A stretch of 64,000 nt of DNA from Nitrosopumilus sp. GTDB lineage: Archaea > Thermoproteota > Nitrososphaeria > Nitrososphaerales > Nitrosopumilaceae. This document shows positions 28,442 through 54,886 of the stretch, in pieces. Both the position numbers and the translations under genes were made by a program. Positions within the stretch are counted from its first letter, which is position 1, and every line of letters starts with the position of its first letter. The stretch covers positions 1,664,001 to 1,728,000 of the forward strand of contig OZ245040.1 in the NCBI GenBank assembly GCA_965224195.1, in the 5' to 3' direction. The notes below the pieces were generated by a model. That model did no database searches, was not told the DNA's origin, and saw only the letters and a program-made list of their open reading frames with translations.

Positions 28442-29516
28442 GGCTACTCTGTCGAACAAATCATTTCCAACTAATGATTAATTTCATTTCCCTCAAACAC
28501 TTGCAAACAGATTGTACAGCTCGACTTTTAATTCCAATTCCTTTACCATGTATTTTCTTTTGTGAGCCATGACATACTCACCAGACATCCTTTTGAATGT
28601 TGAAAACACACACTCTACAATCCACCTGTCCCCATAGCTAACGCTGCGCTTCCACAAATCCAAATTATACATTTGAGCCAAAACTGATTTCTTTCGGAGA
28701 TAACATTTTGTTTTGAGAGATGATGTCTTTCTAACTTTGATTGCAGGCAGTGCATTTGTGTTGTGGTACAGATATGAAAAGTTGTTTTCTGAATCATATG
28801 CGCCATCAGCTAGAGCCTTGGTTACATTTCCTTTGTACAATGCTTGTTGTACTAGTTCTGGCAGATGTGCCAGGCATCATGGAATGAATCATCAATTATT
28901 TTCAGTGAAACTATTTTCTTTGATTTCACATCTGCACCAACATGGATTTTCAAGAATCCTCTTCTCATGTGCCATTTCTGTCGCATCCATTCACCTCTGT
29001 CTGCAACTGGTAAATAGACCTTCACCACATAGTGTTTCTAATTGCCATTTCTGTCGCATCCATTCACCTCTGTCTGCAACCTTGATTCCAGTGCTGTCAA
29101 TTGCTAAAATGATTTCATTGTTATCTCCAATGGAATTATCAATTTTGATGTCAAGCTTGTTTATTCTCTTGTGAATTGATGTGAAATCAGGAACTGCTGG
29201 AATTCTATTACAGTATGCACGAATCATTCCTTCTGTTTGTCTGAATGGCAGTCCAAAATATGCTCTGGCATAACCCAATAATTTCATAAACGATTCAGGA
29301 TAGCCTGGACTTTCTACCTCTTTTGTTGTGATTCATGACCTCCAGTTCTTTATGCCAGTTCTCAATGACATCAAATGACATGATGTTCTTCACCCCTTCT
29401 GACTAGTTTTTCATTGTATTGACTCCATTGTACCATGAAAATAATCAGAATGTGAGATCCAAATCTATTGTGGTGTAATGATATTGATCAGATTGTTGTT
29501 TGTTAGACAAAGTACC
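28442..29516 (-). mobile_element. IS5-family (IS903-like) element with a degraded transposase
   Basis: FGLPFRQTEG, AIDSTGIK, RGEWMRQKW, LADGAYDS, RWIVECVFSTFKR in broken frames; ends ggctactctgtcgaacaaa and tttgttagacaaagtacc. Confidence 0.85.
28970..29080. repeat. 38-bp direct repeat flanking a 35-bp unique insert
   Basis: tgccatttctgtcgcatccattcacctctgtctgcaac at 28970-29007 and 29043-29080. Confidence 0.95.
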
Positions 29517-29885
29517 AAAAATAACAATCAAGGTGATTGTAAACCTACCACCACCAAACTAATTTCATATAATTATTGAGAAAGACAATCAAGTTATCCA
29601 AAATAATCCATGACAAATCAGCAACCCTTGGAATTCTTGTGTAAATAATTCAAACAGGCATGAAAACGATTCAGAACAAGATTTACAGTTCAGGTCTTGA
29701 CAAGCTTGCAGAACCATTTTGCGTCCACTGCTTTGCATCTTGGATCCTTTTGAGTAATCTTCCCCCATTTCAAACTAGTGTTGCATTAGGTTTTGGTTAA
29801 TCGTTACGCTAGCGTGCTGAATTATCTAGTCCAGATGAATGATACTCCAAGATTTATAAATTGTATTTTTTGGAATAATTTCACT

Positions 29886-30101
29886 ATGGCCTGCAAGGGA
29901 ACCTGTACTCAACATAAGGCAAAAAGAGTTCATGGTATTAATCGCTACATCCAAGGACAAAAGATGTGCTCCATATGCGAGGTTTTCATGTACTGGAATG
30001 GCAAGCACTGTCCATGCTGTAATTTTGTGCTAAGGACAAGGCCGCGCAACACGAAAAACAGAAGACAGCTGCAGACGGTTCAAGTTGTAAGGAGAATCTA
30101 G
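29886..30101 (+). CDS. small Cys-rich zinc-binding protein
   Basis: MACKGTC...CSICEVFMYWNGKHCPCC; paralog at 45064-45279. Confidence 0.8.
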   Translation: MACKGTCTQHKAKRVHGINRYIQGQKMCSICEVFMYWNGKHCPCCNFVLRTRPRNTKNRRQLQTVQVVRRI

Positions 30102-30234
30102 CAATACTTGATCAAGAGTTGACTTTATGCAGGTTAATTTATTTTTAATGCATCAATGGAGCTGCAATCGGGAGTGGAACATGAAAACACAAAACACAAA
30201 ATTGTATGATTACGACCCATGAGTTTGGTTAATA

Positions 30235-31300
30235 GATGAGTTGTGCAACTAGTCCAATTTGAGTATAATCTCAACATTTTCTAATCATAAGATCCAAAGC
30301 TAAGACTGAATTATTTTCAATTCATGTTTAATTGCACAAACTGGCAAAAAAACCAAAGCAATTCCTGTCAATAGCAGGACTAACTGTTCCACAGTTTGAT
30401 TCCCTATACAAAGAAATAAAGAAAAATTGCAAAACTGCAGAACAAAAGAGACTATCCAAAAATAGAGAAAGAGACATTGGTGCAGGACACAAGTTTGACT
30501 TGTCCTTCAAAGACAGAATTCTAATGTTTTTCATGTACTACAGAATGTACACAACATATGACATGCCAGGGATGACATTTGATTTGGACAGACCAAACGT
30601 AATGAGAAACATCAGATGTTTGGAGCCTGCAGTGAGGCAGTCCATTGTAATTGCTGCCAAAAAATATGCAGACTCAAAAGAGATTAACGGCATGCAGAAA
30701 TTGCAAGAATTCTTTCCGGAATTAGTTGCAATCACTGATGGCACAGAACAGCCCATCCCAAGACCAAAAAACAAAAAGAAAAGAAAGACACACCATTCAG
30801 GCAAAAAGAAAAAACATGCAGTACAAAATCAAATCGCCATAAATCTTGATGGGATAATAATCCACAAATCTGCACATTCGCCTGGCAGTCATCATGATTA
30901 CAGAATTTACAAATCAAGGCATCCAACATTGTCTGAAGGGTTGCTGCAGTCTTATGATCCTGGATGTTTGGGGATGGAAAAGGACTTTCCAGAACAGGCA
31001 AGTGTTTTGCCATGCAAGAAAAAGAAAGGAAAAAAATTGACTGTTGCTCAAAAGAAGTGGAACAGGATGCAGTCAAAAATTAGAATAAAAGTTGAGCATG
31101 TCATTGCACAAGTCAGGCAATTTCGGATAAATCGCGATGTGTTTAGAAACAAATTATGCAGATATGATGTGACAAGTGAAATTGTTTGTGGGACTGTCAA
31201 TTTCAAGATTAAATGGAAAGAAGAATTCATTACAATTCCATAAAATTAAGAATTAAATGACAGAAAAGTTAGATTTTTGCTTGTAATTACGCAACTCATC
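30235..31300 (+). mobile_element. IS5/IS4-like (DDE_Tnp_4) insertion sequence, copy 2
   Basis: same ends as copy 1, TA flanks, 303-aa ORF 30332-31243. Confidence 0.93.
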
Positions 31301-31467
31301 TATTAAAAAACCCTAAATAGTTATATTGCGTAGAAAAATGTGAAGTCTCATGACAATTGATTATACGACGATAACAGCAAAGGAATTGATTGAAAAAATC
31401 AAAAGTAAAGAAATTGATTCATGTACATATAGTACAATGAAAGAGTTCTATGAGGGATTGAGACAGC

Positions 31468-31740
31468 ATGCAACTAATTCTAGTTAATGGGTTCTGGCCC
31501 GAGTTTTTTAAATTTGATCCAAATAATGGTGACCGAGATCTAATTACTACATCTCTTTCAAGTATGCAAAATTTAGCAGCAACTCTTTCACTTTTAGAAG
31601 TAAAACATGAGTATTCTTACATTCAATTTCCAATAAAAAATAATAAAATACTACAGTTTGTGTTAGATGTCGATTCTGTTGTTGCTATGATTTATGACGG
31701 TACTAAAGCCGAATACAAAGAAAACCACTCTCAACGTTAA
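31468..31740 (+). CDS. hypothetical protein
   Basis: 90-aa ORF. Confidence 0.4.
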   Translation: MQLILVNGFWPEFFKFDPNNGDRDLITTSLSSMQNLAATLSLLEVKHEYSYIQFPIKNNKILQFVLDVDSVVAMIYDGTKAEYKENHSQR

Positions 31741-32060
31741 TTTCATAAATTACTCTTTTGATATAGATTGTATCTTACCTGCCAAAAAATAATCAGCTAC
31801 TTTGTGTGCTTTATTTATTTGAGGAGACTCCAGCACAAGCTCGAATACGAGAGATTTTTAATCCTGACTCTTAAATAATTTTATTCCAAGTCTTAATTAT
31901 GTAAATATATTTGGACAGTTAAACTAGGATCAAAGATGTATAAAAAAATGGTAATTCTGCATGCCAAACAAAAAATGACTATCAACAGCTACAAAGTTTT
32001 AAAAAACACATGTCAGAAAAATACAACATCAAACATTATAGAATAAAGCTTGACTGATTC

Positions 32061-32672
32061 TTGTGCCTTGATCGTATGAATTACAAGATTCGCAGTTTTG
32101 GGCCATGTCATACACATAACGATTTAAAACGATTCATACTCAAAAGGCCAGACATTACAATTTTGGATTCACGTAATCAGATTATTCTCATCATTGAGAT
32201 AGACGGCTCGATTCACAATCTGCAATATGTTAGAGAAAAATCAAATAGTCGCGATAGACAATATACACTTGCAAAGATTCCTTTTTTCTCTATTAATCTG
32301 CTGGAGCTTGATATTATGAAAATCAATCATTTTGAATATCTCGATGAGCAGTTAAAAAAATCAGGAAGCTCTGATTTTGAAATCAACTCTAAAGACACAT
32401 GCGGTGGGTATGTTTTGCCTTTAATCCACTTTTCCATTACAAAACCCCTCGACAGCCCGACAGAACCTTTTTTTGACTTGGTGTATACACAGCATAATCA
32501 GTCCGGCAGGTGGTGGGTCCTGTGCGTAACTTTGATCACCCTGATAATTCTTACAACGGTAACCCTGATAATTCTAATTGACACGGGCAGTGAGACAAGC
32601 AGTGTTCGCAGCAAAAAATATGACTTTGAGAAAAACTTCATGCTGATTCTGGCAAAAGAATGCACGGCATAA
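32061..32672 (+). CDS. DUF559/Vsr-like PD-(D/E)xK endonuclease domain; C-terminal half probably read-through
   Basis: KRPDITIL...IIEIDGSIH...RDRQY. Confidence 0.6.
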   Translation: MCLDRMNYKIRSFGPCHTHNDLKRFILKRPDITILDSRNQIILIIEIDGSIHNLQYVREKSNSRDRQYTLAKIPFFSINLLELDIMKINHFEYLDEQLKKSGSSDFEINSKDTCGGYVLPLIHFSITKPLDSPTEPFFDLVYTQHNQSGRWWVLCVTLITLIILTTVTLIILIDTGSETSSVRSKKYDFEKNFMLILAKECTA

Positions 32673-32719
32673 AAACCAAGCCCCGTCTCAGAGGTTTTTT
32701 TAGATAAAAATAGCTTGGG

Positions 32720-33073
32720 CTATCTTTGCAGCTCGTCGTAGATTATTTTTGTGAACTGCCCAATCATGGCAGCATTCGGGGCCTCGTCATGCTTCTTCAT
32801 GGTCTTTGCCACATGCTGGTTTATGGAGCAGAGCAGCTCAGTCCTTGAGCGCACCATGTCAAGCGTCTGGGAGTCCAGATCACCAGGCGGCTTTTTGTCT
32901 TTGAGCTGCTGCCGGCGTTCCTCCAGGTACGATCTGTTCCCAGGCCTTGTTCTGCATTTGAGATCTTTGTACCAGTGATCATCTGCCTTGTATATGGCAT
33001 CACCGGCTCTGATTTGTACACTGCAAACCTTGCACGTGCTGGCAAACCTTGAGGCCATAGATATGACAGACAT
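32720..33073 (-). CDS. small CxxC protein, virus-like, paralog of 16395-16679
   Basis: MASRFASTCKVC..IRAGD....DDHW. Confidence 0.65.
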   Translation of the reverse strand: MSVISMASRFASTCKVCSVQIRAGDAIYKADDHWYKDLKCRTRPGNRSYLEERRQQLKDKKPPGDLDSQTLDMVRSRTELLCSINQHVAKTMKKHDEAPNAAMIGQFTKIIYDELQR

Positions 33074-34490
33074 TTATTTTATTCTCCTCAAAAACTCTAG
33101 ATATTTTGTTGGCGAGTTGTCAGCTGATTCAGGCAAGTAGAACATCTGAATTGTTTCAAGCATCTCATCAAGGTAGTCAAGCAGCCTGACTTTATGCACC
33201 CTGCACTTTCCATCAGCACATGATCTATAATGACAATCTGTTGTACGCCTGCGGAATTGCTGGTTTCATAGTACATAAAGCCGTACATCGCAGCCTGCAT
33301 GTACCAGATGTCTCTTTTCTTGCCATATCGGGGGGGGTTGTTAGAATAGTAAAATGTGTAAGATGCAAGTATGAATTTCCTACAAGAAAGACCATAAGCG
33401 ATCCGTTACAATGTGGAAAATTCTTTAATGCATAAAAATAGAAGGCAATGATGAAATGCATGCCGTGAGATCTCATCATCGAGAAATGATCGGGAGATCA
33501 ACTCTGAGCCTTCTTATTTTTAATATTCATAAAATCTTATAAACTCTTCTATGAAAGCAGTCCTTTTGGCCTTTTGTCTTTTTTATTTGCAGAATGACAT
33601 AATCCACGTCTTTCCTTTAGTCGTTGTTTGTTTAATTTTAATTTGGGTTTTGTTCTTTATTTGATTTTATTGAATCTAATCTAATATCCATTCCAGGGAA
33701 TTTCCATTAGAGAAATTTTATTAGATAAAATACCATACTAGGTGATATCCGTTCCAGAAGATATTAACATCAAAGTGTATCCTACAGGGAGCAGGTCCTG
33801 AAAATCCTGTAGAGTCTAGATTGTTCCAATCTGGATGAGACTTGGATGAAATCATTCCAGTACTGTAGCAGAATTATCTCAAGGAATCGCTCTTGCGAGA
33901 ATCATTCTTGCAGAAAACGCAAACTCTGTTGCTGAAACTACTTTTCTAGTTTCCTTGAAGTTTCATTTTTAATACCATTTCCTTTTGATTCATTTCATGA
34001 TATTCCAAGAATTTCTGAATTTGTTCCATAGAATTAAAAAATATAATAGTTCCATTTCAGATAATTATTCCATTGAATAGTTCTGCCAAAGATCATACCT
34101 CATACAATCATCCAAAATGCCCGATTTGTCAAAAGCAATTCTCAGACTTGAAGGAGTTGCGAGAGCATAAGATTAGCCAGCATGCGTACTAGAACTTTTA
34201 TTCAATTCTGATATCTTTCCATTTCAGAAATTATTCCTTTAAGACTTTTTTGATTGCTAATCAACCTAAATCCTATCAAAAATTTATTCTCATTTGGAAT
34301 TAACTATAATTTTTAATCGACTCTCATCATTTGAACTTCAATCACACAGTACACATTTCCAGATATCACTATTCTTGTTCCCCTATGATTTCCTGTCATT
34401 CGTATTAGTTTTTCACTGTTCTTTTTTCTAAACTGACATGCAATCCGTTCACCTTTAATCGAGTCATTGGTGCTATAATGTACTGACATA

Positions 34491-34970
34491 TTATTTTAAA
34501 TTTTCAACAATTTGTTTGTTTTCTTTTAATTCAGACACTACATCCATTACCATTTTTAGATCTAAATTATATTCATTAGCCATATCACTTGGATAAAATA
34601 TTTGACCTACGCTAATTTCTTTTAATATTATCTTTTTCACACTTTCTTTATCTAAATCAAAATTGTCCCCGCTAGTATTTTCTTGCATTTGAATTAAGCC
34701 ATAACTTTCTATCATTTGCTGTGTTTTGTCATTATTTTTTAATACCCTTTCTATCAAATCACGTAATTCAATTCTTAGACACCTAAAGTTATCCAAGTCA
34801 GTGTGTGCAGTGTTTTGAAATTCTTTTTTTATGTATTCCAATGTATGCATATGCTGTTCGTGTACCATTTCAGTTTTATCTGTAGATAATCGTGTCATGT
34901 TTTGTCTGCCATATGTTTCTTCTGGTGTTCCTGGCGTAACTGCAGGGGTCGTAAAAGATAATCGTGTCAT
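34491..34970 (-). CDS. hypothetical protein with C-terminal wHTH; N-terminus extended by 24 aa by a duplication plus insert
   Basis: FYPSDMANEYNLDLKMVMDVVSEL; MTRLS occurs twice. Confidence 0.7.
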   Translation of the reverse strand: MTRLSFTTPAVTPGTPEETYGRQNMTRLSTDKTEMVHEQHMHTLEYIKKEFQNTAHTDLDNFRCLRIELRDLIERVLKNNDKTQQMIESYGLIQMQENTSGDNFDLDKESVKKIILKEISVGQIFYPSDMANEYNLDLKMVMDVVSELKENKQIVENLK

Positions 34971-34991
34971 GTTTTGTCTGCCATATGTTTC
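34884..34991. repeat. 36-bp direct repeat flanking a 36-bp unique insert
   Basis: agataatcgtgtcatgttttgtctgccatatgtttc at 34884-34919 and 34956-34991. Confidence 0.95.
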
Positions 34992-35386
34992 AGCATATGC
35001 CTTGGAAATTTTGTTGAAATATCATAATTCTGCCACACATTCAATTGATACTCTGTTGTGATATAACGCAATTGTTTTAGACTTTCATATAGTTGATTAG
35101 GATCTTTTGCATTATATGCCTCTACCAAGAATCGAATTTTCTCTGAGATATCTAAATTTATTTTGTCTCTAATTTCTTTTGGAATTGCATGATCAGATAT
35201 GTCCACTAAATTGTCAAATACAGTTTCTAAAATTTCACTAATGAATACCTCATCTTCTAACTCTAGATTCCATGTAAATTTTACTAAATCACTAGAAATT
35301 CTATGACATACAGAATAATTGGCACTTTCAAGATTTTTTTGTATATCCCCAACCTTGTTTGTAAATACTATTTTTGCATCTTTCAT
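34967..35386 (-). CDS. helical hypothetical protein
   Basis: 139-aa ORF with ATGA overlap to the downstream gene. Confidence 0.65.
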   Translation of the reverse strand: MKDAKIVFTNKVGDIQKNLESANYSVCHRISSDLVKFTWNLELEDEVFISEILETVFDNLVDISDHAIPKEIRDKINLDISEKIRFLVEAYNAKDPNQLYESLKQLRYITTEYQLNVWQNYDISTKFPRHMLKHMADKT

Positions 35387-35767
35387 TTATTTGATGTCGT
35401 TTATCTCATTTATAATATAAACATGATGATTGAATAAATTAAAAAGTCACATGAATATGCTGTAAAATAAAATCCTTGCGAAACCAACATCATACTAACG
35501 GATTCGGCCTCAATGTATGGGATTGAAATTTCAAGATAAGATACAACTGTAATTACAATTAAGGATAATATTATTGCAGTGCTGTCTTTTTTCTGTATGA
35601 TTTATGATTAATTATTGTACCATATTTTCTAGATCCTCCGTATCGATTATCGTATTTGCCTCCAAACGCACGACCTTTCCAATCCTCTACCTCAAGTCGT
35701 CTAGGTCATCCACATCACAGTTAATACATATTATCCACAACAATATTACTCCCATAACAGATCTCTA

Positions 35768-36833
35768 GATGAGTTGCGTAATTACAAACAAAAATCTAAC
35801 TTTTCTGTCATTTAATTTTTAATTTTATGGAATTGCAATGAATTCTTCTTTCCATTTAATCTTGAAACTGACAGTCCCACAAACAATTTCACTTATCACA
35901 TCATATCTGCATAATTTGTTTCTAAACACATCGCGATTTATCCGAAATTGCCTGATTTGTGCAATGACATGTCCAACTTTTATTCTAATTTTTGACTGCA
36001 TCTTGTTCCACTCCTTTTGAGCAACAGTCAATTTTTTTCCTTTCTTTTTCTTGCATGGCAAAACACTTGCCTGTTCTGGAAAGTCTTTTTCCATCCCCAA
36101 ATATCCAGGATCATAAGACTGCAGCAACCCTTCAGATAATGTTGGATGCTTTGATTTGTAAATTCTGTAATCATGATGACTGCCAGGCGAATGTGCAGAT
36201 TTGTGGATTGTTATCCCATCAGGATTTATGGCGATTTGATTTTGTACTGCATGTTTTTTCTTTTTGCCTGAATGGTGTGTCCTTCTTTTCTTTTTGTTTT
36301 TTGGTCTTGGGATGGGCTGTTCTGTGCCATCAGTGATTGCAACTAATTCCGGAAAGAATTCTTGCAATTCCTGCATGCCGTTAATCTTTTTTGAGTCTGC
36401 ATATTTTTTGGCAGCAATTACAATGGACTGCCTCACTGCAGGCTCCAAACATCTGATGTTTCTCATTACGTTTGGTTTGTCCAAATCAAATGTCATCCCT
36501 GGCATGTCATATGTTGTGTACATTCTGTAGTACATGAAAAACATTAGAATTCTGCCTTTGAAGGACAAGTCAAACTTGTGTCCTGCACCAATGTCTCTTT
36601 CTCTATTTTTGGACAGTCCCTTTTGTTCTGCAGTTTTGCAATTGTTCTTTATTTCCTTGTATAGGGAATCAAATTGTGGAACAGTTAGTCCTGCTATTGG
36701 CAGGAATTGCTTTGGTTTTTTTGCCAGTTTGTGCAATTAAACATGAATTGAAAATAATTCAGCCTTAGCTTTGGATCTTATGATTAGAAAATGTTGAGAT
36801 TATGCTCAAATTGGACTAATTGCACAACTCATC
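35768..36833 (-). mobile_element. IS5/IS4-like (DDE_Tnp_4) insertion sequence, copy 3 (inverted)
   Basis: same ends; ORF 35825-36736; TA on one side only. Confidence 0.93.
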
Positions 36834-37015
36834 TCATCTAAATCAGGTTTTATTCTAGAATAAGGAATAACTCTTTGATCAATATCTAAAATCACTTCTT
36901 GAGATAATGTCGTATGATTTAATATTGCAATATTAGATGTTGCTTTCCATTCACTAAATCCAATTCTTTTCAATACATTTAACACTGTATTAACTACATA
37001 TTCTTCTCGATTCAA
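36834..37015 (-). pseudogene. HicA-like toxin truncated by the IS
   Basis: VLNVLKRIGF...; follows a hicB-like gene; the ORF runs into the IS end. Confidence 0.55.
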
Positions 37016-37019
37016 AAAG

Positions 37020-37223
37020 TTATTTCACATCCACAGTGTCAACTGATTCTAATTGACTTTCTAGATCCGGATGTTTTTCCAAATACAATTTTATAGCTTC
37101 TGGAATCTTTCTTGTTGCTTCTTCTCTTGTTTTCCCAAAGACGCGTACAGGTTTCATCGATGGGCAATATGCCATGTATCCCGTACTTCCTTCTAACTGT
37201 TCAACTCGAAATGTAATCTGCAT
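37020..37223 (-). CDS. hicB: HicB-family antitoxin
   Basis: GYMAYCPSMKPVRVFGKTREEATRKIPEAIKLYLE from ATG 37223. Confidence 0.8.
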   Translation of the reverse strand: MQITFRVEQLEGSTGYMAYCPSMKPVRVFGKTREEATRKIPEAIKLYLEKHPDLESQLESVDTVDVK

Positions 37224-37274
37224 GATAGTATAATATATTATATAATTTAGACATATATGTATTTGAAAATACGT

Positions 37275-37402
37275 GGCTTGGCAAATCAACATTGATTTTA
37301 CAAAATGGCTTGCATTGATCAAACTCTTTGAGCTTGGCACAAGTGCAAGACGTGCAGGAATTGAGATCGGCACTGGCTATCCTACCGTATTACTTGCATT
37401 TG
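37275..37402 (+). pseudogene. IS1595 transposase fragment cut by the TIR element
   Basis: manual translation KWLALIKLFELGTSARRAGIEIGTGYPTVLLAF matches TWLSLIKLFELSVSAKTASEQVRPSYKTTLKAF of 13247-14089. Confidence 0.75.
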
Positions 37403-37482
37403 TACACTGGTCAAAACTAGGCGGATTTTCAACTAGTGGTCAATTCGGGTGATAAAGTGGTCAGTTAGGGTGATAAACACTG

Positions 37483-39108
37483 TTAGGAATATAGATTAAT
37501 TCTTTCTTGAACATGTTTAGAATTTTTAATAAAATTGGTTTTCCATTTGTCATATTCTTTTTTATTTTTGAACCATTTTACATTATTTTGTTTTATATAT
37601 TTCATAAGATTTTCAGGATTACATAACTCAATATTGATTTTAGGTATAATTGAATAATCTTCTAATGGAAAAGATTTCCAGTATTTCAATGATTTCAGAA
37701 ATTTTTTACTAGAACTATATTCATTTTTAAGAGTTTTTTTGTCAAAAATTTCAATCACTTTATCTGATTTCTGTTGTATCAATGAAGAAAGTTCAAAGAT
37801 GGAATTAGAAATTAAAGATAGTTTTTCTTCTATAACTTGTAATATTCTTATATCTATACTGCCATTGACGAGTAAATTTACAACATGTATCTTATCTTTC
37901 TTTTGACCAATTCTATCAATTCTACCAATTCTTTGTTCTATACGCATTGGATTCCAATGTAAATCATAATTCATCACAGCACTACAAAATTGTACATCTA
38001 ATCCCTCAGAACCTACAAGAGTCATAATAAGAATAGATTTCTCTGAATCACGAAAACTGTTAATTACTTTATGTCGTTCTAAAAGAGGAGTTTCACCAGT
38101 CATAACAAAAATAGTCCATTTATCTGAAAATTCTTTTTCAATAGCTTTTGTAGTTTCGGAAAATTCACAAAATATTAACCATTTTTCAGATTTTATTGTT
38201 TCAATAATTTTACGAGCAGCCATGATTTTTGGATCTTTTTTTATCAAAATCTCTTTTAATCCTACAGATTTACTAAATGCACGAGAACTACTAGAAGCTA
38301 ATCGATAATAGGTGATTTTTTCAAAAAAGGAATCATTTTTTGTGGGAATTTTTGAAATGATCTTTTTAATTTTGTCCACATATTCTGTAGGATAAGAAAC
38401 TTCCATATTTTTTATTATTCTTTTTGCAAAATGTATTCCTAAATGCTCTTTGGTAAATCGTGTTACTAATGAATTTGTGATTAAGTATTTGTTTTTATCC
38501 CAAAGATCATCAATTAGAATAGATATGGCATCTCTACTATTATGTGGAAACAATATGCTTAATTCAGAAATAAAATCATCTATAGAATTGTTTATAGGAG
38601 TTGCACTTAACCCCACCCTATAATCTGCATGAAGTGAAATACTTCTTGCATTCTTATATCCAATTGTATCATCATTTCTAAAATTATGTATTTCATCAAA
38701 AATAACTACACTCACTTTTGTTTTTTTAGATAAAGTAATCTTATTCAAAATGGATGAAGGTAAAATATACACTAAAGGTATTTTTTTAAGTCTTTTAGTT
38801 TGAAGTTCATTCTCCATGGTGGCAAATTCTTCTACATTAGTAACAATAATACATTTAAGATTAAATTTTGAAATTATCTCTTCTTTCCATTTAACTAATA
38901 ATGATGGAGGGCAAATAACAATTCCTGATTGATTGAGTTTTGAAATTAAGAATAAAAGTATGTATCCAGCTGAGATTGTTTTACCTACACCAACACCATC
39001 ACTAATTAAAACTCCATTAAGATCATTATGAAGTAATTTCATTAATGGTACCAATTGATATGAAGATGGTTTAAGAAAAGACTCTGATTTCATACCACCA
39101 ATCCTCAT
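37483..39108 (-). CDS. SNF2-family (RapA/DrmD-like) SF2 helicase
   Basis: DGVGVGKT, DEIH, SATP, GSEGLD, YDLHWNPMRIEQRIGRIDRIGQ. Confidence 0.93.
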   Translation of the reverse strand: MRIGGMKSESFLKPSSYQLVPLMKLLHNDLNGVLISDGVGVGKTISAGYILLFLISKLNQSGIVICPPSLLVKWKEEIISKFNLKCIIVTNVEEFATMENELQTKRLKKIPLVYILPSSILNKITLSKKTKVSVVIFDEIHNFRNDDTIGYKNARSISLHADYRVGLSATPINNSIDDFISELSILFPHNSRDAISILIDDLWDKNKYLITNSLVTRFTKEHLGIHFAKRIIKNMEVSYPTEYVDKIKKIISKIPTKNDSFFEKITYYRLASSSSRAFSKSVGLKEILIKKDPKIMAARKIIETIKSEKWLIFCEFSETTKAIEKEFSDKWTIFVMTGETPLLERHKVINSFRDSEKSILIMTLVGSEGLDVQFCSAVMNYDLHWNPMRIEQRIGRIDRIGQKKDKIHVVNLLVNGSIDIRILQVIEEKLSLISNSIFELSSLIQQKSDKVIEIFDKKTLKNEYSSSKKFLKSLKYWKSFPLEDYSIIPKINIELCNPENLMKYIKQNNVKWFKNKKEYDKWKTNFIKNSKHVQERINLYS

Positions 39109-39907: not shown

Positions 39908-39908
39908 T

Positions 39909-43459: not shown

Positions 43460-43463
43460 AGAG

Positions 43464-44822: not shown

Positions 44823-45063
44823 TTTTTTATTTCGATATATAGTATGTTTAACATGGAAGTATCAGATCAAGAAATAGTCAAAAGGCTAAGAGAAACAATA
44901 GACTTTCTCAAAGTAGAATCCATTGGCGGTGTGTGGAATACGCCTCAACTAATTGAGATGCTGGAGGATTTATTCAAAGAAAATTCTAAAACTTCATAAT
45001 TTTTCAGATTATTTAATGCTAACAATAATTGCTAGTTGAAATTACCTTCCCAATTAATTCATG

Positions 45064-45279: not shown

Positions 45280-45687
45280 GATGAAATTATGGCAATAAAT
45301 ACAATTTATGAATCTTAGAGAATTATTTTATCTTATCCATAATCAAATCACCCTAACTGACCACTTTATCACCCGAATTGACCACTAGTTGAAAATCCGC
45401 CTAGTTTTGACCAGTGTATTATGATATGTTACCACATCAAGAACAAAAAGCTTTGATGGCCATGAGACCTGGAAAAGCCCATACGTATATTGGCTACATC
45501 AACCAATGCATCTGTCTTGGCAAAAAATATAACATTAATGATCTTGCAAATACCAGTACCGCCAAGGTTTGTAAAAGATTATCAGATATACAGCGTCGTG
45601 TTTTTAGAGTATGACAATTAATTGTGTCAACTATGGCGTTGCAAGCGCCAATATTTGATACAATTTTATGAAAGGAGTAATAGTTTC

Positions 45688-45921
45688 TTACTGTTTAAAG
45701 AGATCATCAATTTTATTTATTACAGACTCTAGATCTTCCTGTCTAGAATCATTAGGCCATTTTTTTGTGTTGTTTCGATATGAGGAACGTACCTTTATTT
45801 TACCTTCATCCAGGTATAGAACAAACTCTAATTTTGTAATTATTTCAAGTTCTCTGTTACCATCTTTATAAACATCTCCCACATTACAGTCTAAGATAGT
45901 GTCTTTGGTTATTATTGTCAA
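45688..45921 (-). CDS. hypothetical protein
   Basis: 77-aa ORF. Confidence 0.45.
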   Translation of the reverse strand: MTIITKDTILDCNVGDVYKDGNRELEIITKLEFVLYLDEGKIKVRSSYRNNTKKWPNDSRQEDLESVINKIDDLFKQ

Positions 45922-45966
45922 TAAGTAAAATAATCTCCGTATTTATTTAAACATTAGAAAAAAAGA

Positions 45967-46468
45967 TTAGGTTAGTAATCTAACCGTAATCAGCATATTG
46001 AGTTTGGTTCCATCATCAATTGGGTGATTGAATTTTTTGAAATCGGAGTGTGTTTGAGGAACTTTAAAGTAATAGGTTTTGACAAAACTTTCCTTATCAT
46101 TACCTAACATTCTGTTGGTGTTAGGATCTAAGACAACCATATTGACATCCCAATTAGATTTAGTTGAGATATCTTTTGTCTTGGTTTGGATAACTGGTTT
46201 TATCCAATCTTTGTCACCATCTACAATTATTCCTATCACATCATCTGTTCCTTCAGAGATTGGTTGCCAGTGATTATTCATAGTTACACATGTACCCCAA
46301 CCGTTAACACAGTTGTGAGAGTTATCCTATTTGGAACCATAACTCTTTGATGTCATCATCATCACATCCCCACCAACAAGATGCAAATGCTTCTTGTGTT
46401 AATGGAGTTGTGACAAATGCAACAGCTGCAACCAATAGTAAAGGTATTGTTAGTTGTTTTGAAATCAT
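45967..46468 (-). pseudogene. secreted protein, frameshifted
   Basis: signal peptide MISKQLTIPLLLVAAVAFVTTPLTQEAFA from 46468, out of frame with ORF 45967-46281. Confidence 0.6.
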
Positions 46469-46506
46469 TACAAGTGTAATTGATTATTCATGTATATCAT
46501 CGACTC

Positions 46507-46613
46507 ACTTGTCCAGTAAGTATTGAGATAATACTGATTGGGCAAGTAAGTATTAGGTTAGTCAGTTTTAGAATACTTATTGGGCAAGTAAGTATTAGGT
46601 TAGTCAGTTTTTA
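46507..46613. promoter_or_regulatory. repeated palindromic operator-like sites (42-bp tandem duplication plus an inverted partial copy)
   Basis: aatactta-N9-taagtatt; units at 46530-46571 and 46572-46613; acttgtccagtaagtatt at 46507-46524. Confidence 0.65.
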
Positions 46614-46649
46614 TGATCATTGAAATTTGAGAGACATAAACAATTTACA

Positions 46650-46859
46650 ATGTTGTATAAAATTGATGTAGGGATAATGACTAGAATTGCACAACACTTA
46701 CAACAGAAAGGAAAGACAAAGAGGACAAAACTTGCAATGATATGTAACATGAACTATACAGCATTAATTGAATATTTGGTGTGAATGAAGAAATTCAATC
46801 TTGTAACTATAGGCAGACACGTGCAGTTAACAGATGCAGGCAGAGAAGTGTTAACTTAA
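46650..46859 (+). pseudogene. archaeal wHTH transcription regulator with premature TGA at 46782
   Basis: manual translation KRTKLAMICNMNYTALIEYLV*MKKFNLV...VQLTDAGREV. Confidence 0.7.
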
Positions 46860-46960
46860 TGTGTCAACTATGGCGTTGCAAGCGCCAATATGCCTGGAGC
46901 CTTGGGGCCCGGCACATACAACTGCATGTTAGCTGACATGGTACAGTACGCATCCATAGT

Positions 46961-47408
46961 TTAAAGATTTTTTGTAAAAGACAAAGCTAATTGAGCAAAG
47001 CCCAACTTTTTGTAAAACTGGTATGACTCTCGTCTGTTATTTGCAGACTCTAGTCTTATCCTGTGGCATTTCTTCTTTTTGGCAAGTGCAACACAATAGC
47101 TTGCAAGTTTTTTACCAATACCGCAACTATGATATTTCTCAAACACCACTAGTTCTGGGATGTACATCTCCAAAGCTGTATGGTTTAGTCTTGGTAAAAA
47201 CATTGCACTGGCCATTCCTGCAATTTTAATATCACCAATTTCTGCAACAGATATTTTTTTATCAAAAGATGTCAGGTATTTTTTTTATCTTGCTTCTAAA
47301 CATCTCAACATCATAGTCTTTTTGTATTCCTGGTCTTCCCAATTCGTACAGCAACTCCAAGAGTACAGGGTAATCCTTGCTAGTTGCATCTCTAATTGTT
47401 ATCTCCAA
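46961..47408 (-). pseudogene. GNAT acetyltransferase, frameshifted in the A8 tract at 47279-47286
   Basis: IRDATSKD N-terminus; YIPELVV...GIGKKL...FYKKLGF. Confidence 0.8.
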
Positions 47409-47491
47409 TCTATAAAGATCCAGTGATAACTCCTAGTTAACAATATGGATACAAAGACAGTATTTAATAATCATAAAGTAATACTGTAATC

Positions 47492-47696
47492 ATACCAAAT
47501 GCAATGCAGTCAAAGTTTGATAGTAAATGTAAGCACTGTAAGATATCCATCAAAAATGGCGATACCATCTGCAAGGCAAATGAGCACCTGGTGTAAAAAC
47601 CAAAAGATATCCAATGCCTCCAAAAATAAAGCTAGGACGAGATATCCTAAGGCATTTTACAAAAAGTGTATGGATTATGCCATACACAGAAACTAG
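47492..47696 (+). pseudogene. degraded third copy of the MQSKFDSKCKHC family
   Basis: manual translation PNAMQSKFDSKCKHCKISIKNGDTICKANEH, then a frameshift. Confidence 0.7.
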
Positions 47697-48267
47697 ATTT
47701 TTAGAAACTTTTTTCTAATTGATCATTAATGACTTGGAAAAAACTGACAGCGCGATTCTCATTTAGAATTCTTTTAGCCTGAATTTTGTGTATTTTGGAG
47801 TAATTTTTCTCATCAATCATAATGGTTATGCGCTTTGATGCCATAATAATAATTTAGTATAGTTGTATTTTAATATTTTAAAATTATTTTATATCTATGC
47901 TTCCACCTGAGTTTATCAAAAGTATTGAGCATACAATATTATTAAACATAGAATAATTAACACACCAAAACAGAATATATCAGAGAACCTCAAAGACACC
48001 ACAAAAAGTAGCAAACATACGTGATTTTCATTTTGGCCAATATATGGGCGGTCTTAAAAAATCACTGATAATTTCATTTGAGAATGCATATGGTAGAAAA
48101 ATGACACCAAAACAATGGGATGAGTTTGATAGCATCTTTATCGATTATCAAGACACCATAGGAAAATATTTTTACGAATAATAATTTTGATTTACTTAAA
48201 AAAATTTATTCTTTGTTATAAGGAAAAATGATCAGTTTAATTAACCCCTAAAATACCATAACAAGTC

Positions 48268-48700
48268 ATGAAACAAGTAGTTGGGAAATTAAGGATAGTC
48301 TTCAGTAAAGAGCAACTAGCCGAGCAAAAACAATTCACAGAGGATTTAAAAAATGGGACTGCAAAGATCGCATTTGAAGGGACTTTCAAAGAAGGAATGG
48401 ACTTTTTAGAGGAGACTGGACGACTTGTGGACACTTGTATTCACACATAAATTTTTAATTTCCTATTGGAAACTAGATTCATTTTTGAAGGATTGGATTA
48501 AAGAAGATATTTTAGATATACAAAAAAATGCAGATATTATTGAAATTAGTGAAAATATTGAGATCATAGATGAATATGATGGGACAACTGTAGTTCCAGA
48601 ACACATGGTAAATTACATAATAGAACATGATGTTGAAAAAGTATACATTATTTCAATTAATGAAACAGGGATTAAGCAAAAATTAAATAATTATCGATAG
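48268..48700 (+). other. pair of small overlapping ORFs, possible toxin-antitoxin-like module
   Basis: 60- and 91-aa ORFs; YIIEHDVEKVYIISI is weakly RelE-like. Confidence 0.3.
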
Positions 48701-48925
48701 TGATCAGTAACGTTGCTCAAAAATATAATAATTCCTTTAACTTTATCTAGCTATTTTTATTCATGGATTTTGATCCAGAAAACCCTGAACGATATTTTTT
48801 TTGGCTGATAGATCACTCAATAAACGAATCATTCAAAAAAACATATGGGAAGGATTGGAAACGTTATAAGTTATGATTTTAAAATTGTTTGGTTAATGTT
48901 ATAAATTTACTTGAATTAAAAAAAT

Positions 48926-49420
48926 TAGGACATGGGTTTCAAGCCCAAGTCTTGTTCTATTTGATTCCAAGGTGTGACGTATGAGTCAGTTGTAGTGGTA
49001 GGATCATGACCTGTTATGATTCCAAGAATTTTTGCGTTGTTATTACTATCTAACACATATACAGGAAGCACCACTATCACTGTTTGCACTTTGTGCACCG
49101 CGTATCCTTACAACATGTAGAATGTTATCAAACTCATCAAATATACGTTCATTCAAAGATACAACCGTAGCAGTACGTTCACTGTTACTGTTTATGCCCT
49201 TCCATTTGACTGGCATATTTACAGTAGGATTCATAGAACCTACAACATCATATGCCTTACCACCAACAAGATGTATCTTCATCGGCTCAACTGTAGCTAT
49301 CTGTAATGGTTCATTTTCAGAACAAAGCGATAGTTTTGCATCATGTTCGGGGCATCCTATAGGGTATTCAACAAATGCAGCATCTACATGAGAGTTTGTG
49401 TTTGGATGATTTTGTGTAAC
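48926..49420 (-). pseudogene. trypsin-like serine protease 3' fragment
   Basis: SDSGA (GDSG-like), in-frame stops, ILGIITG...YVTPWNQIEQDLGL. Confidence 0.55.
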
Positions 49421-49509
49421 CGTACCCTGCGGCAGGGGCTTTGTTTTTTTACATCCTCACAAGTTCAAAAAACTTGCAATGTGCCTCTGCTGCAAATCAA
49501 ACTTTAGAA

Positions 49510-52500
49510 CTATTTTTTCTTTATTATTTCAAAATAATAAACAATAGCAGCAAACACAGCGACAAAAAATATTATTGAAATTATTAGCAGATCACCAATA
49601 GATACTTTGAGCTCAACAGGCTCTGGCGTTGGTTCAGGTGTGTATACAGGTTCAGGCGTTGGTTCAGGTGTGTATACAGGTTCAGGCGTTGGTTCAGGTG
49701 TGTATACAGATTCAGGTGTTGGTTCAGGTGTGTATACAGGTTCAGGCGTTGGTTCAGGTGTGTATACAGGTTCAGGCGTTGGTTCAGGTGTGTATACAGA
49801 TTCAGGTGTTGGTTCAGGTGTGTATACAGGTTCAGGTGTTGGTTCAGGTGTTGGTTCAGGTGTTGGTTCAGGTGTTGGTTCAGGTGTTGGTTCAGGTGTG
49901 TATACAGGTTCAGGTGTTGGTTCAGGTGTTGGTTCAGGTGTGTATACAGGTTCTGGTGTTGGCTCTGGTATTGGTTCCGGTGTTGGCTCTGGTGCTCTGA
50001 CAGATGATGGCCTGTTGTCCCTGCCGACAATGTCTTTTAACAGTTCATCCAAATTCATATTATCATAATGTACTATGCCAGGCAGTTCCTTCAGTATGAT
50101 GTGGCCATCACAGTATGCCGCAGCAGATTCTACCTGTGCCTGTTTTTGTGATTTGTCGTAACTTTTTATCGACATTACATTTTCAGAAAGCATCTCTAAA
50201 CCCTCAAAGCTAAACGCATATAGAGAGATGGGTACGTGCACGGACTTGAGAAGATCCTTCATGCTGGCCTGGGATGTCACATCAATGCCAACATTGGATG
50301 GATGCCCGTCCAAGACAATGGAGGCGCCAAGGTTGTCCCCATATGTACCTGCAACTAGTACCACATCATTTTCCAGTCCGCACTGGTTGTACAGCAGCAG
50401 CATTGGACTCATTGTAAAACCTACAGAGCCGCTGCTGCCACCACGGTCAGCAGGCTGTGGTGTAGTAGGCTGTGGTGCGATGGGTTTTGGTGCGATAGGT
50501 TTTGGTGCGATAGGTTTTGGTGGCAAGACATCCTCTGGTATTTCTTTAGGAGTGCTGTCAATTACTGCGGTATCTAGTTCAACACTGACTGTATCTTCAA
50601 TGACAATAGGATCCCTTACGACAAGTACTAGGCTGTCATCCTTCTTCACCACATCTGCACCATCTGATGTTGGAATGTCATCAGCTAGTGACTTGGTGTG
50701 CTGCACTGCCGTGCCATCAGGTGTCAAGCTGGTATTCTTTGTTACATCCACGCCGTCTGATGTTGGAATATTGTCAGCCAGTGATTTGACATATTGTTTG
50801 GTTACAGAGATACCATCTGATGTTGGGATAGTATCAGATGGAGATATTGCATACAGTTTCACTACATCAACTGCGTCCTTTGATGGAACTGCATCAGCTG
50901 GAGATATGGCATACAGTTTCACTACATCCGCATTGTCCCTTGTTGGGATAGTATCAGATATGGATCTAGAGTACCGCTTTACCACATCCGCATCATCTGA
51001 TGTTTTGATAATATCAGCTAGAGATTTTACATATTGCTTGGTTACATCCACATCATCAGATGTTGGAATTGTATCAGATATGGATCTAGAGTACCGCTTT
51101 ACCACATCTGCATCATCTGATGTTGGAGCCTCATCAGATGGAGATATGGCATATAGTTTCACTACATCTGCACCATCTGATGTTGGAATATTGTCAGCTA
51201 GTGATTTGACATATTGCTTGGTTACAGAGATACCATCAGATGTTGGAGCTTCATCAGATGGAGATATGGCATATAGTTTCACTACATCTGCACCATCTGA
51301 TGTTGGAATATTGTCAGCTAGTGATTTGACATATTGTTTGGTTACAGAGATACCATCAGATGTTGGAATATTGTCAGCTAGTGATTTGACATATTGTTTG
51401 GTTACAGAGATATCATCGGATGTTGGGATGGTGTCAGATGGAGATATGGCATATAGTTTCACTACATCAACTGCGTCCTTTGATGGAACTGCATCAGATG
51501 GAGATATGGCATATAGTTTCACTACATCCGCATTGTCCCTTGTTGGGATAGTATCAGATATGGATCTAGAGTACCGCTTTACCACATCTGCACCATCTGA
51601 TGTTTTGATGTCATCAGATATGGATTTGACATATTGCTTGGTTACATCCACATCATCAGATGTTGAAATTGTATCAGATATAGATCTAGAGTACCGCTTT
51701 ACCACATCTGCATCATCTGATGTTGGAGCTTCATCAGATGTAGATATGGCATATAGTTTCACTACATCTGCATCATCTGATGTTGGGATGGTGTCAGCTG
51801 CTAAGCTGGCATACAGTTTCGCCACAACCACACCATCAGATGTTAGGATAGTGTCAGATGTAGATATTGCATATAGTTTCGCCACATCCGCATTGTCCCT
51901 TGTTGGGATAGTATCAGATATGGATTTGACATATTGTTTGGTTACAGAGATACCATCAGATGTTGGAGCTTCATCAGATGGAGATATGGCATATAGTTTC
52001 ACTACATCTGCACCATCTGATGTTGGAATATTGTCAGCCAGTGATTTGACATATTGTTTGGTTACAGAGATACCATCAGATGTTGGAGCTTCATCAGATG
52101 GAGATATGGCATACAGTTTCGCCACATCTGCATTGTCCCTTGTTGGGATAGTATCAGATGGAGATATTGCATACAGTTTCGCCACATCTGCATTGTCCCT
52201 TGTTGGGATAGTATCAGATGGAGATATTGCATGCAGTTTCGCCACATCTGCATTGTCCCTTGTTAGAACATCATCAAATGTAGATCTAGAGTACCGCTTT
52301 ACCACATCTGCATCATCTGATGTTGGGATGTTATCAGATGGAGATATTGCATACAGTTTCACTACATCTGCATTGTCCCTTGTTAGAACATCATCAAATG
52401 TAGATCTAAAGTACCACTTTACCACATCTGCATCATCTGATGTTGGGATAGTATCAGATGGAGATATTGCATACAGTTTCACTACATCCGCACCATCTGA

Positions 52501-54477
52501 TGTTGGGATAATATCAGCTAGAGACTTTGCATGCAGTTTCACTACGTCTGCACCATCTGATGTTTTGATAATATCAGCTAGAGACTTTGCATATTGTTTC
52601 ACTACGTCTGCACCATCTGATGTTGGGATGGTCTCATCAGCCAGGATAAATTGTCTCTTCACCACGATCATTATGCTAAAAAGACCATTGAACTGGCCGT
52701 CACCAGAACCTCTGCTGCCAAACTGAAACTTGTAGTTGTATGCAGAGTCAAAGACCTGGATGCGGTGGTTGCCGTTGTCTGCAACAAGTATGTCGCCGTC
52801 TGACTTTATTGCCATGCCCGTAGGACCATTGAACTGGCCGTCACCAGAACCTCTGCTGCCAAACTGGTCCTTGTATGTACCGTTGGGATCAAAGACCTGG
52901 ATGCGATCGTTTAAGGCATCTACGACAAGTATGTCGCCATTTGGTGCGATTGATATGTTACTTGGACCATTGAACTGGCCGTTGCCAGAACCTTTGCTGC
53001 CAAACTGTGATTTGTAGTTGTATGCAGAGTCAAATACCTGGATGCGGTGGTTCTTTCTGTCTGCAACAAGTATGTCGCCATTTGGTGCGATTGATATGTT
53101 AATAAGGCGATGGAGTTGGCCTGCAGAGCCGGAACTGCCAAACTGGGACTTGTAGTTGTATGCAGAGTCAAATACCTGGATGCGGTAGTTGTCGTTGTCT
53201 GCAACAAGTATGTCGCCATTTGGCGCTATTGCCATGCCACGAGGGTTGTCAAACTGGCCGTTGTCAGAACCGAAACTGCCAAACTGGAACTTGTATGTAC
53301 CATTAGAATGAAAGACCTGGATGCGGTGGTTGTCGTGATCTGCAACAAGTATGTCGCCATTTGGTGCGATTGCCATGCCCGTAGGACGGTTGAACTTGCC
53401 ATCGCCAGAACCCTTGCTGCCAAACTGGTCCTTGTATGTACCGCTGGGATCAAATATCTGGATGCGGTGGTTGTTGATGTCTGTAACAAATATGTCGCCA
53501 TCATATGTGATTGGCTTGAGATAGCCAGACTTGAAGACATGGATGCGGTGGTTGTCGTTGTCTGCAACAAGTATGTCGCCATTTGGCGCTATTGCCATTC
53601 CCATAGGGCGAAAATATTTGTCGTCAACAGTATTGGTAAACTGGGACTTGTAGTTGTATGCAGAGTCAAACACCTGGATGCGGTGGTTGTTTTTGTCTGC
53701 AACAAGTATGTCGCCATCAGGGTTGACTATTATGTTGTTGGGGTTACGGAGTTGGCCGTCACCAGAGCCGGAACTGCCAAACTGGGACTTGTAGTTGTAT
53801 GCAGAGTCAAAGACCTGGATGCGGTGGTTGTCGTGATCTGCAACAAGTATGTCGCCGTCAGACTTTATTGCCATGCCCGTAGGGCCATTGAACTGGCCGT
53901 TGCCAGAACCCTTGCTGCCAAACTGGGACTTGTAGTTGTATGCAGAGTCAAAGACCTGGATGCGGTGGTTGTCGTGATCTGCAACAAGTATGTCGCCACT
54001 TGGTGCAACTGCCATGCCACGAGGGTTGTCAAACTGGCCGTTGCCAGAACCTCTGCTGCCAAACTGGGACTTGTAGTTGTATGCAGAGTCAAAGACCTGG
54101 ATGCGGTGGTTGCCGCTGTCTGCAACAAGTATGTCGCCGTCAGACTTTATTGCCATGCCCGTAGGGCCATTGAACTGGCCGTTGCCAGAACCCTTGCTGC
54201 CAAACTGGGACTTGTAGTTGTATGCAGAGTCAAAGACCTGGATGCGGTGGTTGTTTCTGTCTACAACAAGTATGTCGCCACTTGGCGCTATTGCCATGTC
54301 ACGAGGGCTAGCCAACATGCCGGCAGCAGAACCGGAGCTGTCAAAAAATGACTTGTATGTATGCGGTTCAGGGGCAGTAGAGGACTGGGCCTGGGCAGCA
54401 GGGATAACAGCAGCAGTAGTAATGATGATTGAAAATAAGACTGCCATGCCAAAAAATACAAGTAGTTGCAATTTCAC
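49510..54477 (-). CDS. giant cell-surface protein: signal peptide, 12 NHL repeats, about 33 x 20-aa repeat stalk, PEPT linker, TM anchor
   Basis: [18 protein letters not shown] x12; same stalk units and near-identical C-terminal region as 1530-10213. Confidence 0.93.
50640..52640 (-). repeat. 60-bp tandem repeat array, same family as 2500-8570
   Basis: 60-bp period. Confidence 0.95.
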
Positions 54478-54513
54478 ATCCTATCTGACATGCTATGTCC
54501 TGCCTCTCTTCCA

Positions 54514-54525
54514 CCCCCCCCCCCC
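54514..54525 (-). repeat. G12 tract 37-48 bp upstream of the NHL giant gene start
   Basis: C12 on the + strand. Confidence 0.85.
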
Positions 54526-54774
54526 GATTTCTATAGCAGTGGTATGTCAATAATCGATAATATGCCGGTTTATGCATTTAGAGTGAGCCCCTGTTTTTGG
54601 TAACCACTTTTTGCATAATCTTGCATGCAGTTGATATCATTTATGTGTCATCACCCACAACTCCATAAGCTCATCGGGGGCCTGCCATTTTCTGGGAAAT
54701 AATGAACTGTCAAGTCTTTTGCTCCTGCAAAGTTATCCAGATTATAAGAAAATAAATCACTGTATATTGGATGC

Positions 54775-54886
54775 CATGGCACCTCGATTGCATCACTGCC
54801 ATCCATTGCAGCCTGATCAAAATCCTTCAGCCGCATCATCATTTGCTGCATGGCACCTTGATTGCATCACTGCCATCCATTGCAGC
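54775..54886. repeat. 38-bp direct repeat (1 mismatch) flanking a 36-bp unique insert
   Basis: catggcacctYgattgcatcactgccatccattgcagc at 54775-54812 and 54849-54886. Confidence 0.93.

Follow-up and report, generated by a model that had tools for sequence, protein, structure and literature searches.

Introduction

Insertion of spacers outside CRISPR arrays has been demonstrated in Escherichia coli overexpressing Cas1-Cas2, where off-target integration generates 'neo-CRISPR' loci (Nivala, Shipman & Church 2018, cited in PMC7054753, PMC6698737, PMC9456107, PMC11788318, and bioRxiv 10.1101/148544). Evidence from nature is called 'circumstantial' in the accessible part of a citing preprint, which refers to two other species (bioRxiv 10.1101/148544). 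Here, three loci are described in a stretch of 64,000 nucleotides from Nitrosopumilus sp. (hereafter the window; positions 1664001-1728000 of contig C1), in each of which a local sequence of 36-38 bp is directly duplicated around a unique insert of 35-36 bp. These three scars and about 37 more in the same genome were very probably left by CRISPR spacers that the native adaptation machinery integrated off-target (ectopically), with Cas1-Cas2 as the presumed catalyst. The genome (G000; 2.07 Mb, 33.6% G+C, two contigs, of which C1 comprises 2,060,248 bp) encodes an AmoA of the archaeal kind, and its source is therefore an ammonia-oxidising archaeon.

As in the neo-CRISPR loci of E. coli, so far as the accessible parts of the above sources describe them, a spacer-length insert lies between duplicated non-CRISPR DNA of repeat length; the potential for array birth and a fitness cost are also common to both, and a choice of target through partial likeness to array features may be. 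Unlike those loci, the present scars are natural and arose without overexpression in an archaeon with type I-G and type I-B(-like) modules; they have duplications of 36-38 bp and represent about 40 fixed events in one genome, many of which disrupt genes. The Cas1-Cas2 of Pyrococcus furiosus likewise inserts spacers, by itself and in vitro, into non-CRISPR sites that share repeat features, with a spacing set by the repeat (PMC6698737, in its accessible part). Those events took place on a plasmid in the test tube, whereas the scars are fixed in the chromosome and their shared feature is a motif at one end. Casposons resemble the scars in their Cas1-type integrase, staggered cuts, and target duplication (accessible parts of PMC8464041 and PMC4046053). 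However, they are described there as kilobase elements with a casposase of their own, whereas the cargo of a scar is 35 bp and unique. Casposon target duplications are short, at approximately 14-15 bp. No casposase-like Cas1 was found in G000. Within the accessible parts of the literature searched, no natural genome was described as carrying such scars in large number; the mechanism is of a known kind, and its occurrence in nature, in an archaeon, across a genome, and as a mutagen appears to be new.

Structure of the Scars

The original prediction had described three target-insert-target loci in the window with periods of 73, 72, and 74 bp and minus-strand target starts GTTGCA, GAAACA, and GCTGCA, and both the positions (Table 1) and the starts were confirmed. 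After refinement of its boundaries, locus 1 comprises 38 + 35 + 38 bp with identical copies; locus 2 comprises 36 + 36 + 36 bp, again with identical copies, and locus 3 comprises 38 + 36 + 38 bp with one mismatch between the copies. The open reading frame (ORF) pieces flanking locus 1 are matched by Pfam DDE_Tnp_1_5 and DDE_Tnp_1, and the transposase frame is shifted by the 73-bp unit. The 72-bp unit of locus 2 keeps the reading frame and contributes 24 codons, placed after codon 5, to the downstream 159-amino-acid ORF (34491-34970, minus strand). In locus 3, the unit causes a frameshift in a short conserved segment.

C1 was scanned for direct repeats that occur as an isolated pair (26 or more of 28 positions matching, period 30-300, no other repeat nearby). 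The scan yielded 55; the period is 70-74 in 29 of them and 69-80 in 36, with a sharp peak at 72-74 and 0-2 isolated repeats in each of the remaining 5-bp period classes. For 29 of 55 repeats to fall within 5 of 271 periods, the binomial p is approximately 1e-35. The search for a period peak that had been recommended with the original prediction spoke in its favour, as did each of the other points named there as able to refute it. From 90 rows with a period of 62-85, native arrays being excluded, 40 scars were curated by eye; the 50 rows dropped were tandem or low-complexity coding repeats and overlapping duplicates of one place. The duplication measures 35-39 bp in 30 of the 40 scars (mode 37), the insert 34-38 bp in 33 (modes 35 and 36, mean 35.95), and the period 71-75 bp in 31 (mode 73). 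The two copies are identical in 28 scars and differ by one mismatch in 11 and by two in one. Scar periods are distributed as 14, 15, and 11 over the three classes modulo 3, so no in-frame length bias exists. Three scars within 64 kb, considered a high density when they were first noticed, are unexceptional here, with about 40 in 2.06 Mb, or about 1.2 per 64 kb.

Each scar is formed by two copies of its own local sequence, and no repeat is common to two scars or to a scar and the native arrays; the three or more copies of a conserved repeat beside a leader that mark a canonical array were found at none of them.

Several scars are composite or have a distinct geometry. At C1:1090832-1091014, the order X-R-I-R-X is observed, in which a 36-bp target (X) encloses a 111-bp block that is itself a 38-bp sequence (R) duplicated around a 35-bp insert (I); a second integration at this junction appears to have used the first inserted spacer as its target and duplicated it. 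At C1:912527-912768, two scars lie 35 bp apart in an MCM-like gene, one of them with a 36 + 40 geometry, and the scar at C1:912673 is 30 + 36, the geometry of system B, whose type I-B array has 30-nt repeats. The segment around a further scar, at C1:1159163-1159275, has paralogues within the type I-G cas locus (C1:716594-716698 and 723002-723084), which suggests a second, degenerate copy of the I-G cas genes.

Native CRISPR-Cas Modules

The window was predicted to contain no cas gene, and it contains none; the three Cas1 genes of the genome lie at C1:714 kb, 947 kb, and 1455 kb. All three are free of stops and adjoin an array, with Cas2 beside each and Cas4 fused or adjacent (Table 1). In locus A, the Cas4g/Cas1g fusion scores 715 bits against a cut-off of 560. 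The effector-like genes of locus C score below the subtype cut-offs, and this locus is labelled I-B-like. A Cas1 frame of 410-440 amino acids, as in some Cas1 matches of relatives, was not found among the three Cas1 genes.

Mean native spacer lengths are 37.0 (A), 36.3 (B), and 36.0 (C), close to the 35.95 of the scar inserts. The repeats of 36 and 37 nt and the spacers of 35-37 nt in arrays A and C give a unit of 72-73 bp, which is the same as that of the scars. Furthermore, chance identity at the boundaries is expected to lengthen the apparent duplication by about 0.8 nt and to shorten the insert equally, as calculated from base composition, and the scars therefore fit true targets of 36-37 bp. 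Duplications 36-38 bp long are compatible with a mixture of 36 and 37, and the two arrays, A and C, have similar period distributions. The proposal that a fixed-ruler integrase of the Cas1-Cas2 type has scarred this genome is supported by 40 scars with the native unit size and by three intact Cas1-Cas2 modules of matching repeat and spacer length.

Empty Sites

Pre-integration sites were recovered for 11 of the 40 scars, including all three loci of the window, by means of paralogues (9), orthologues (1), and a contig of a public sequencing run (1); the empty alleles sought since the first report thus exist in paralogues, in 12 congeners, and in an independent run. For locus 1, at least ten insertion sequence (IS) paralogues carry a single 38-bp target and no insert (e.g., C1:444416-445053 and 920408-921044), and in the former the two flank alignments of locus 1 overlap by exactly 38 nt. 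For locus 3, about seven paralogues carry a single target and no insert, such as C1:534582-534707, in which the alignments also overlap by 38 nt. The empty allele of locus 2 was found in a 354-nt contig of run X3, from a different study, which joins 34883 to 34956 and thereby skips 72 bases, with 36 letters that fit either side. The surroundings of locus 2 are not conserved, with only short, weak matches in 3 of the 30 relatives' genomes, and genomes therefore provide no orthologous empty site; judged from these comparisons of sequence, locus 2 is strain-specific.

The most complete case is the scar at C1:173581, in the C-terminal end of a short-chain dehydrogenase (SDR) gene, for which the filled site, the empty site, and the donor have all been identified. 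Twelve congeners have one target copy and no insert at this site, the closest of them, G015, being 90-92% identical.

With respect to reads, set X1 holds 0.98 and set X2 0.84 of 44 sampled 31-mers of window positions 34700-35200, the scar of locus 2 included. The joints of locus 1 seen when reads are laid down derive from IS paralogues and are uninformative.

Origin and Composition of the Inserts

The inserts are captured DNA fragments. Templating from adjacent DNA, which had been raised with the original prediction as a point that could overturn it, is refuted, since 8 of the 40 inserts are sharply bounded copies of distant DNA in the same genome, matching end to end over 28-39 nt, with the homology stopping at the insert ends. 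Thus, the insert at 886994 corresponds to C1:1253098-1253132 (35/35), that at 911485 to 1093513-1093550 and 1101298-1101335 (38/38), and that at 173581 to 1512390-1512426 (36/37). Donor genes comprise those for Gins51, Orc1/Cdc6, the specificity subunit of a type I restriction-modification system, a DUF7482 protein, a PD-(D/E)XK protein, and an fn3 surface protein.

Donors were not found in the same genome for the other 32 inserts, the three of the window included. Exact matches of the window inserts to IMG/VR were also absent, and the insert of locus 1, the only one covered by this search, had no match with up to three mismatches in 300 genomes of the family. The G+C content is 42.4% for the 32 non-self inserts, 40.4-42.3% for native spacers, 36.4% for the self-derived inserts, and 33.6% for the genome. 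All inserts are different: what they have in common is limited to chance matches of 8-11 nt, and terminal inverted repeats are missing. They are therefore not a family of mobile elements; nor does any repeated element with such termini occur among them, as in the footprint of a transposon or insertion sequence.

Compared with canonical leader-proximal acquisition in arrays A and C, the scars have an equal unit size, insert length, and non-self insert G+C content, and they differ in having neither leader nor conserved repeat, only two copies, and self-derived inserts: a non-array self match longer than 18 nt is seen in 8 of 40 inserts vs. 0 of 287 native spacers (Fisher p = 2.6e-8). Chromosome-targeting spacers in working arrays are presumably removed by autoimmunity, whereas the mini-arrays formed by the scars are probably not expressed as working guides, in which case self-derived inserts would yield no guides and be tolerated, or neutral.

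Of the eight self donors, three (C1:195937-195966, 207965-207998, and 234869-234901) fall within 40 kb of sequence, beside the orc1/cdc6 and Gins51 genes, and may mark an uptake hot spot near a replication origin. The cdc6 donor match is imperfect (30 of 36 nt exact), and the true donor may be a paralogue. The small second contig, C2 (7,434 bp, 31.2% G+C), is matched by no scar insert or native spacer.

Target Preference

Orientation of the scars by expectation-maximisation over whole features reached no sensible result, and instead a single 12-nt motif was sought in every scar, at either end and with offsets of ±2, against 40 null sets of random sites. The end motif carries 5.7 bits of information, as compared with 3.91 ± 0.14 (maximum 4.31) in the null sets. 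Its consensus is (C/G)T|GNTG(C/A)AAT(G/T), where the bar marks the duplication edge, in short form CT|GNTGCAAT. A perfect GYTNCAAY occurs in 6 of 40 scars vs. 32 of 5000 random sites, and the first duplicated base is G at one end in 23 of 40 scars, where 31% is expected (p = 5e-4). No such motif is present at the opposite target end.

The orientation of the native arrays follows from the 3'-handle rule, being set by where the cas genes lie and by the ...ATTGAA(G/A)C 3' ends. Read from the other strand, the repeats of array A start with GCTTCAAT and those of array C with GTTTCAAT, and the motif therefore looks like the spacer-side end of the repeats. The G-initial motif noticed in the three window loci is real, but in this genome it corresponds to the reverse complement of the 3' ends, ...ATTGAAAC and ...ATTGAAGC, and not to the repeat 5' end that had been read into it. 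In vitro, archaeal Cas1-Cas2 makes one sequence-guided cut and sets the second by a ruler (PMC6698737, in its accessible part), and the one-ended motif of the scars fits such a sequence-guided cut plus ruler.

Scars in Related Genomes

The same scan was applied to 400-kb samples of related genomes, with candidates of period 69-80 counted and the Cas1 status taken from a separate search (Table 1). The samples are small and the genomes related, and within these bounds the trend supports a link between the scars and the systems with 36- and 37-nt repeats. By eye, the candidate scar at G014:1737745 overlaps the 3' end of an apparent tRNA.

Table 1. Coordinates of the scars in the window, of the native CRISPR-Cas loci on C1, and of scar candidates in G000 and its relatives.
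Feature	Position	Strand or Cas1 status	Description
Locus 1, left target copy, 38 bp	window 28970-29007		within minus-strand IS5-like DDE transposase gene
Locus 1, insert (ectopic spacer), 35 bp	window 29008-29042		
Locus 1, right target copy, 38 bp	window 29043-29080		begins GTTGCAGA on minus strand
Locus 2, left target copy, 36 bp	window 34884-34919		overlap of two small minus-strand ORFs, with overlapping stop and start codons
Locus 2, insert (ectopic spacer), 36 bp	window 34920-34955		
Locus 2, right target copy, 36 bp	window 34956-34991		begins GAAACATA on minus strand
Locus 3, left target copy, 38 bp	window 54775-54812		short conserved segment with about seven paralogues in the genome
Locus 3, insert (ectopic spacer), 36 bp	window 54813-54848		
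Locus 3, right target copy, 38 bp	window 54849-54886		begins GCTGCAAT on minus strand, a perfect end-motif match
Locus A	C1 ~714-723 kb	minus	type I-G: Cas4g/Cas1g fusion, Cas2, Csb2, Cas3g, Csb1
Array A			36-nt repeats, 90 or more; most frequent periods 72 (30 cases) and 73 (31 cases)
Locus B	C1 ~947 kb		Cas4, Cas1b (436 bits vs. cut-off 304), Cas2
Array B			30-nt repeats; period 66-67
Locus C	C1 ~1450-1457 kb	plus	Cas7/Csh2-, Cas5b-, and Cas3-like genes with Cas1, Cas2, Cas4
Array C			37-nt repeats, 132 or more; most frequent periods 72 (38 cases) and 73 (40 cases)
G000		all three Cas1 types	3, 7, 11, 9, and 8 candidates in five successive 400-kb blocks
G014	C1:1564141, 1737745, 1747638	all three Cas1 types	3 clean scars
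G051	C1:1400043, 1723468	I-G fusion Cas1 only	2 candidates
G017	C1:1221664	only 332-amino-acid Cas1 of the 30-nt type	1 candidate, period 76
G007		no Cas1 found	0 candidates
G018		no Cas1 found	1 doubtful, internally repetitive
G010		no Cas1 found	1 doubtful, palindromic

Proposed Mechanism and Alternative Explanations

In the proposed mechanism, the native adaptation complex, that is, Cas1-Cas2 with Cas4 from the type I-G and/or type I-B-like module, loaded with a prespacer of about 35-37 bp, would attack ordinary chromosomal DNA instead of the leader-proximal repeat. The first cut would be made at the short sequence (C/G)T|GNTG(C/A)AAT, which resembles the opposite-strand spacer-side end of the native repeats, and the second, on the other strand, would be placed 36-38 bp away by the ruler of the enzyme. 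Gap repair would then duplicate the 36-38-bp target on both sides of the spacer, and the product would be a mini-array of two repeats and one spacer, with a local sequence as its 'repeat', acting as an insertion mutation of 71-75 bp.

Several observations weigh against this explanation. Compared over their full length with the three native repeats, the targets are no more similar than the null, so that only the short end motif links target to repeat, and position 4 of that motif is preferably G at the off-target sites and T in both repeats. A protospacer adjacent motif (PAM), looked for as had been suggested with the original prediction, is not apparent: no common flanking trinucleotide is visible in either orientation at the 7 usable self protospacers, which are a small sample. 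Among the relatives, G017, with a Cas1 of the 30-nt type only, has a candidate of period 76, and the Cas1-less G010 and G018 each have one doubtful match. The list of scars was curated by eye (40 kept of 90 rows), and its boundaries are uncertain by 1-3 nt. Read sets X1 and X2 are not independent support because they are possibly the source data of the assembly.

Insertion of short DNA with 36-38-bp target duplications by a fixed-ruler integrase or transposase other than the CRISPR adaptation complex is improbable, although it fares best among the alternatives. It would accord with the null-level similarity of whole targets and the lack of a PAM, and catalysis by Cas1-Cas2 is itself deduced. 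However, the unit size of the scars is that of the native arrays, the only Cas1-type genes of the genome are the three that adjoin arrays, and the inserts have the length and G+C content of spacers, are all different, and lack terminal inverted repeats. We know of no transposase that yields duplications of 36-38 bp around a 35-bp cargo.

Slightly less probable still are errors of replication or repair, in which template switching or break repair with filler DNA would have produced local duplications with captured filler. Break repair is known to use filler from other parts of the genome, and the eight self-derived inserts would be compatible with it. A broad range of lengths would be expected from such errors, whereas one 5-bp class, in agreement with the CRISPR unit, takes in 29 of the 55 isolated repeats; the G+C content of the 32 non-self inserts is that of native spacers, the end motif is specific, and clean cases are absent from the 400-kb samples of Cas1-less relatives.

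An artefact of assembly or sequencing is very unlikely: the Logan contigs of X1 and X2 do break beside the 36-nt repeat of locus 2, but such breaks are expected at repeats longer than the word size, X1 holds nearly all sampled 31-mers across this scar, 12 of 40 scars have one or two mismatches between their copies, the inserts match real donor loci, and the assemblies of G014 and G051 have similar clean scars. Decay of true CRISPR arrays, or of integrated elements with arrays in them, can be given equally little weight as the origin of the scars, for although stand-alone arrays on integrated elements have been described in Thaumarchaeota (accessible part of PMC6563490), each scar 'repeat' is a local gene sequence that is single-copy in paralogues and orthologues, the empty sites contradict such an origin, no two scars share a repeat, and the targets as a whole are unlike the native repeats.

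Effects on Genes

Reading frames are interrupted by many of the scars, and a longer open frame is regained at no fewer than 12 of them (at least 12) when one unit is removed in silico. Removal restores 414 amino acids at 739057 (pieces of 327 and 120), 308 at 1228750 (215 and 115), 284 at 1490408 (197 and 117), and 279 at 1639458 (144 and 162). The genes struck include a short-chain dehydrogenase, an MFS transporter fragment, the MCM-like gene, and two transposases, and units lie in frame inside the open frames of a DsbA-like protein and a 1060-amino-acid cupredoxin protein.

G000 is rich in IS elements, with about 25 copies of a DDE_Tnp_4 family that are 95-99% identical and more than 10 copies of an IS5-like family, and these copy numbers point to a recent IS expansion. 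Weak purifying selection, suggested by the recent IS copies, may be one reason for the high scar load of this genome.

Significance

Off-target integration of spacers has so far been shown mainly in laboratory settings, namely, E. coli strains with overexpressed Cas1-Cas2 and test tubes. About 40 fixed events in a wild-type archaeal genome, if correctly interpreted, would show a real genotoxic cost of CRISPR adaptation in nature. They would also chart, under natural conditions, the sites that type I-G or I-B integrases intrinsically prefer, would directly estimate the rate of self-DNA capture free of selection against autoimmunity, and would supply real intermediates for the birth of new arrays from stray integrations. 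It is tentatively proposed, with a little less than even confidence, that misdirected insertion of spacers is still going on in this lineage, is quantitatively important as a mutational force, and leaves an unselected record of captured DNA. If so, the scars would read out the raw self-to-foreign ratio of uptake (about 1 in 5) as it is before autoimmunity purges self spacers, together with uptake hot spots (3 of 8 donors at 195-235 kb) and the first steps in array birth, as in the nested double event at C1:1090832-1091014. A simple genome-wide screen also becomes possible, in which isolated pairs of repeats are sought that have the period of the native CRISPR unit.

Other Features of the Window

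Two inverted DDE_Tnp_4 insertion sequences, about 95% identical, bracket locus 2 (30332-31243, plus strand; 35825-36736, minus strand). A 40-nt tandem duplication with a period of 42, one mismatch, and no insert is located at 46530-46611 and represents a kind of event different from the scars. Furthermore, the window contains three very large repetitive minus-strand ORFs (1530-10049, 49510-54477, and 58833-63995; 2839, 1655, and more than 1720 amino acids, respectively), with repeat units of 60, 141, and 153 nt and proline- and threonine-rich tracts, which probably encode surface proteins.

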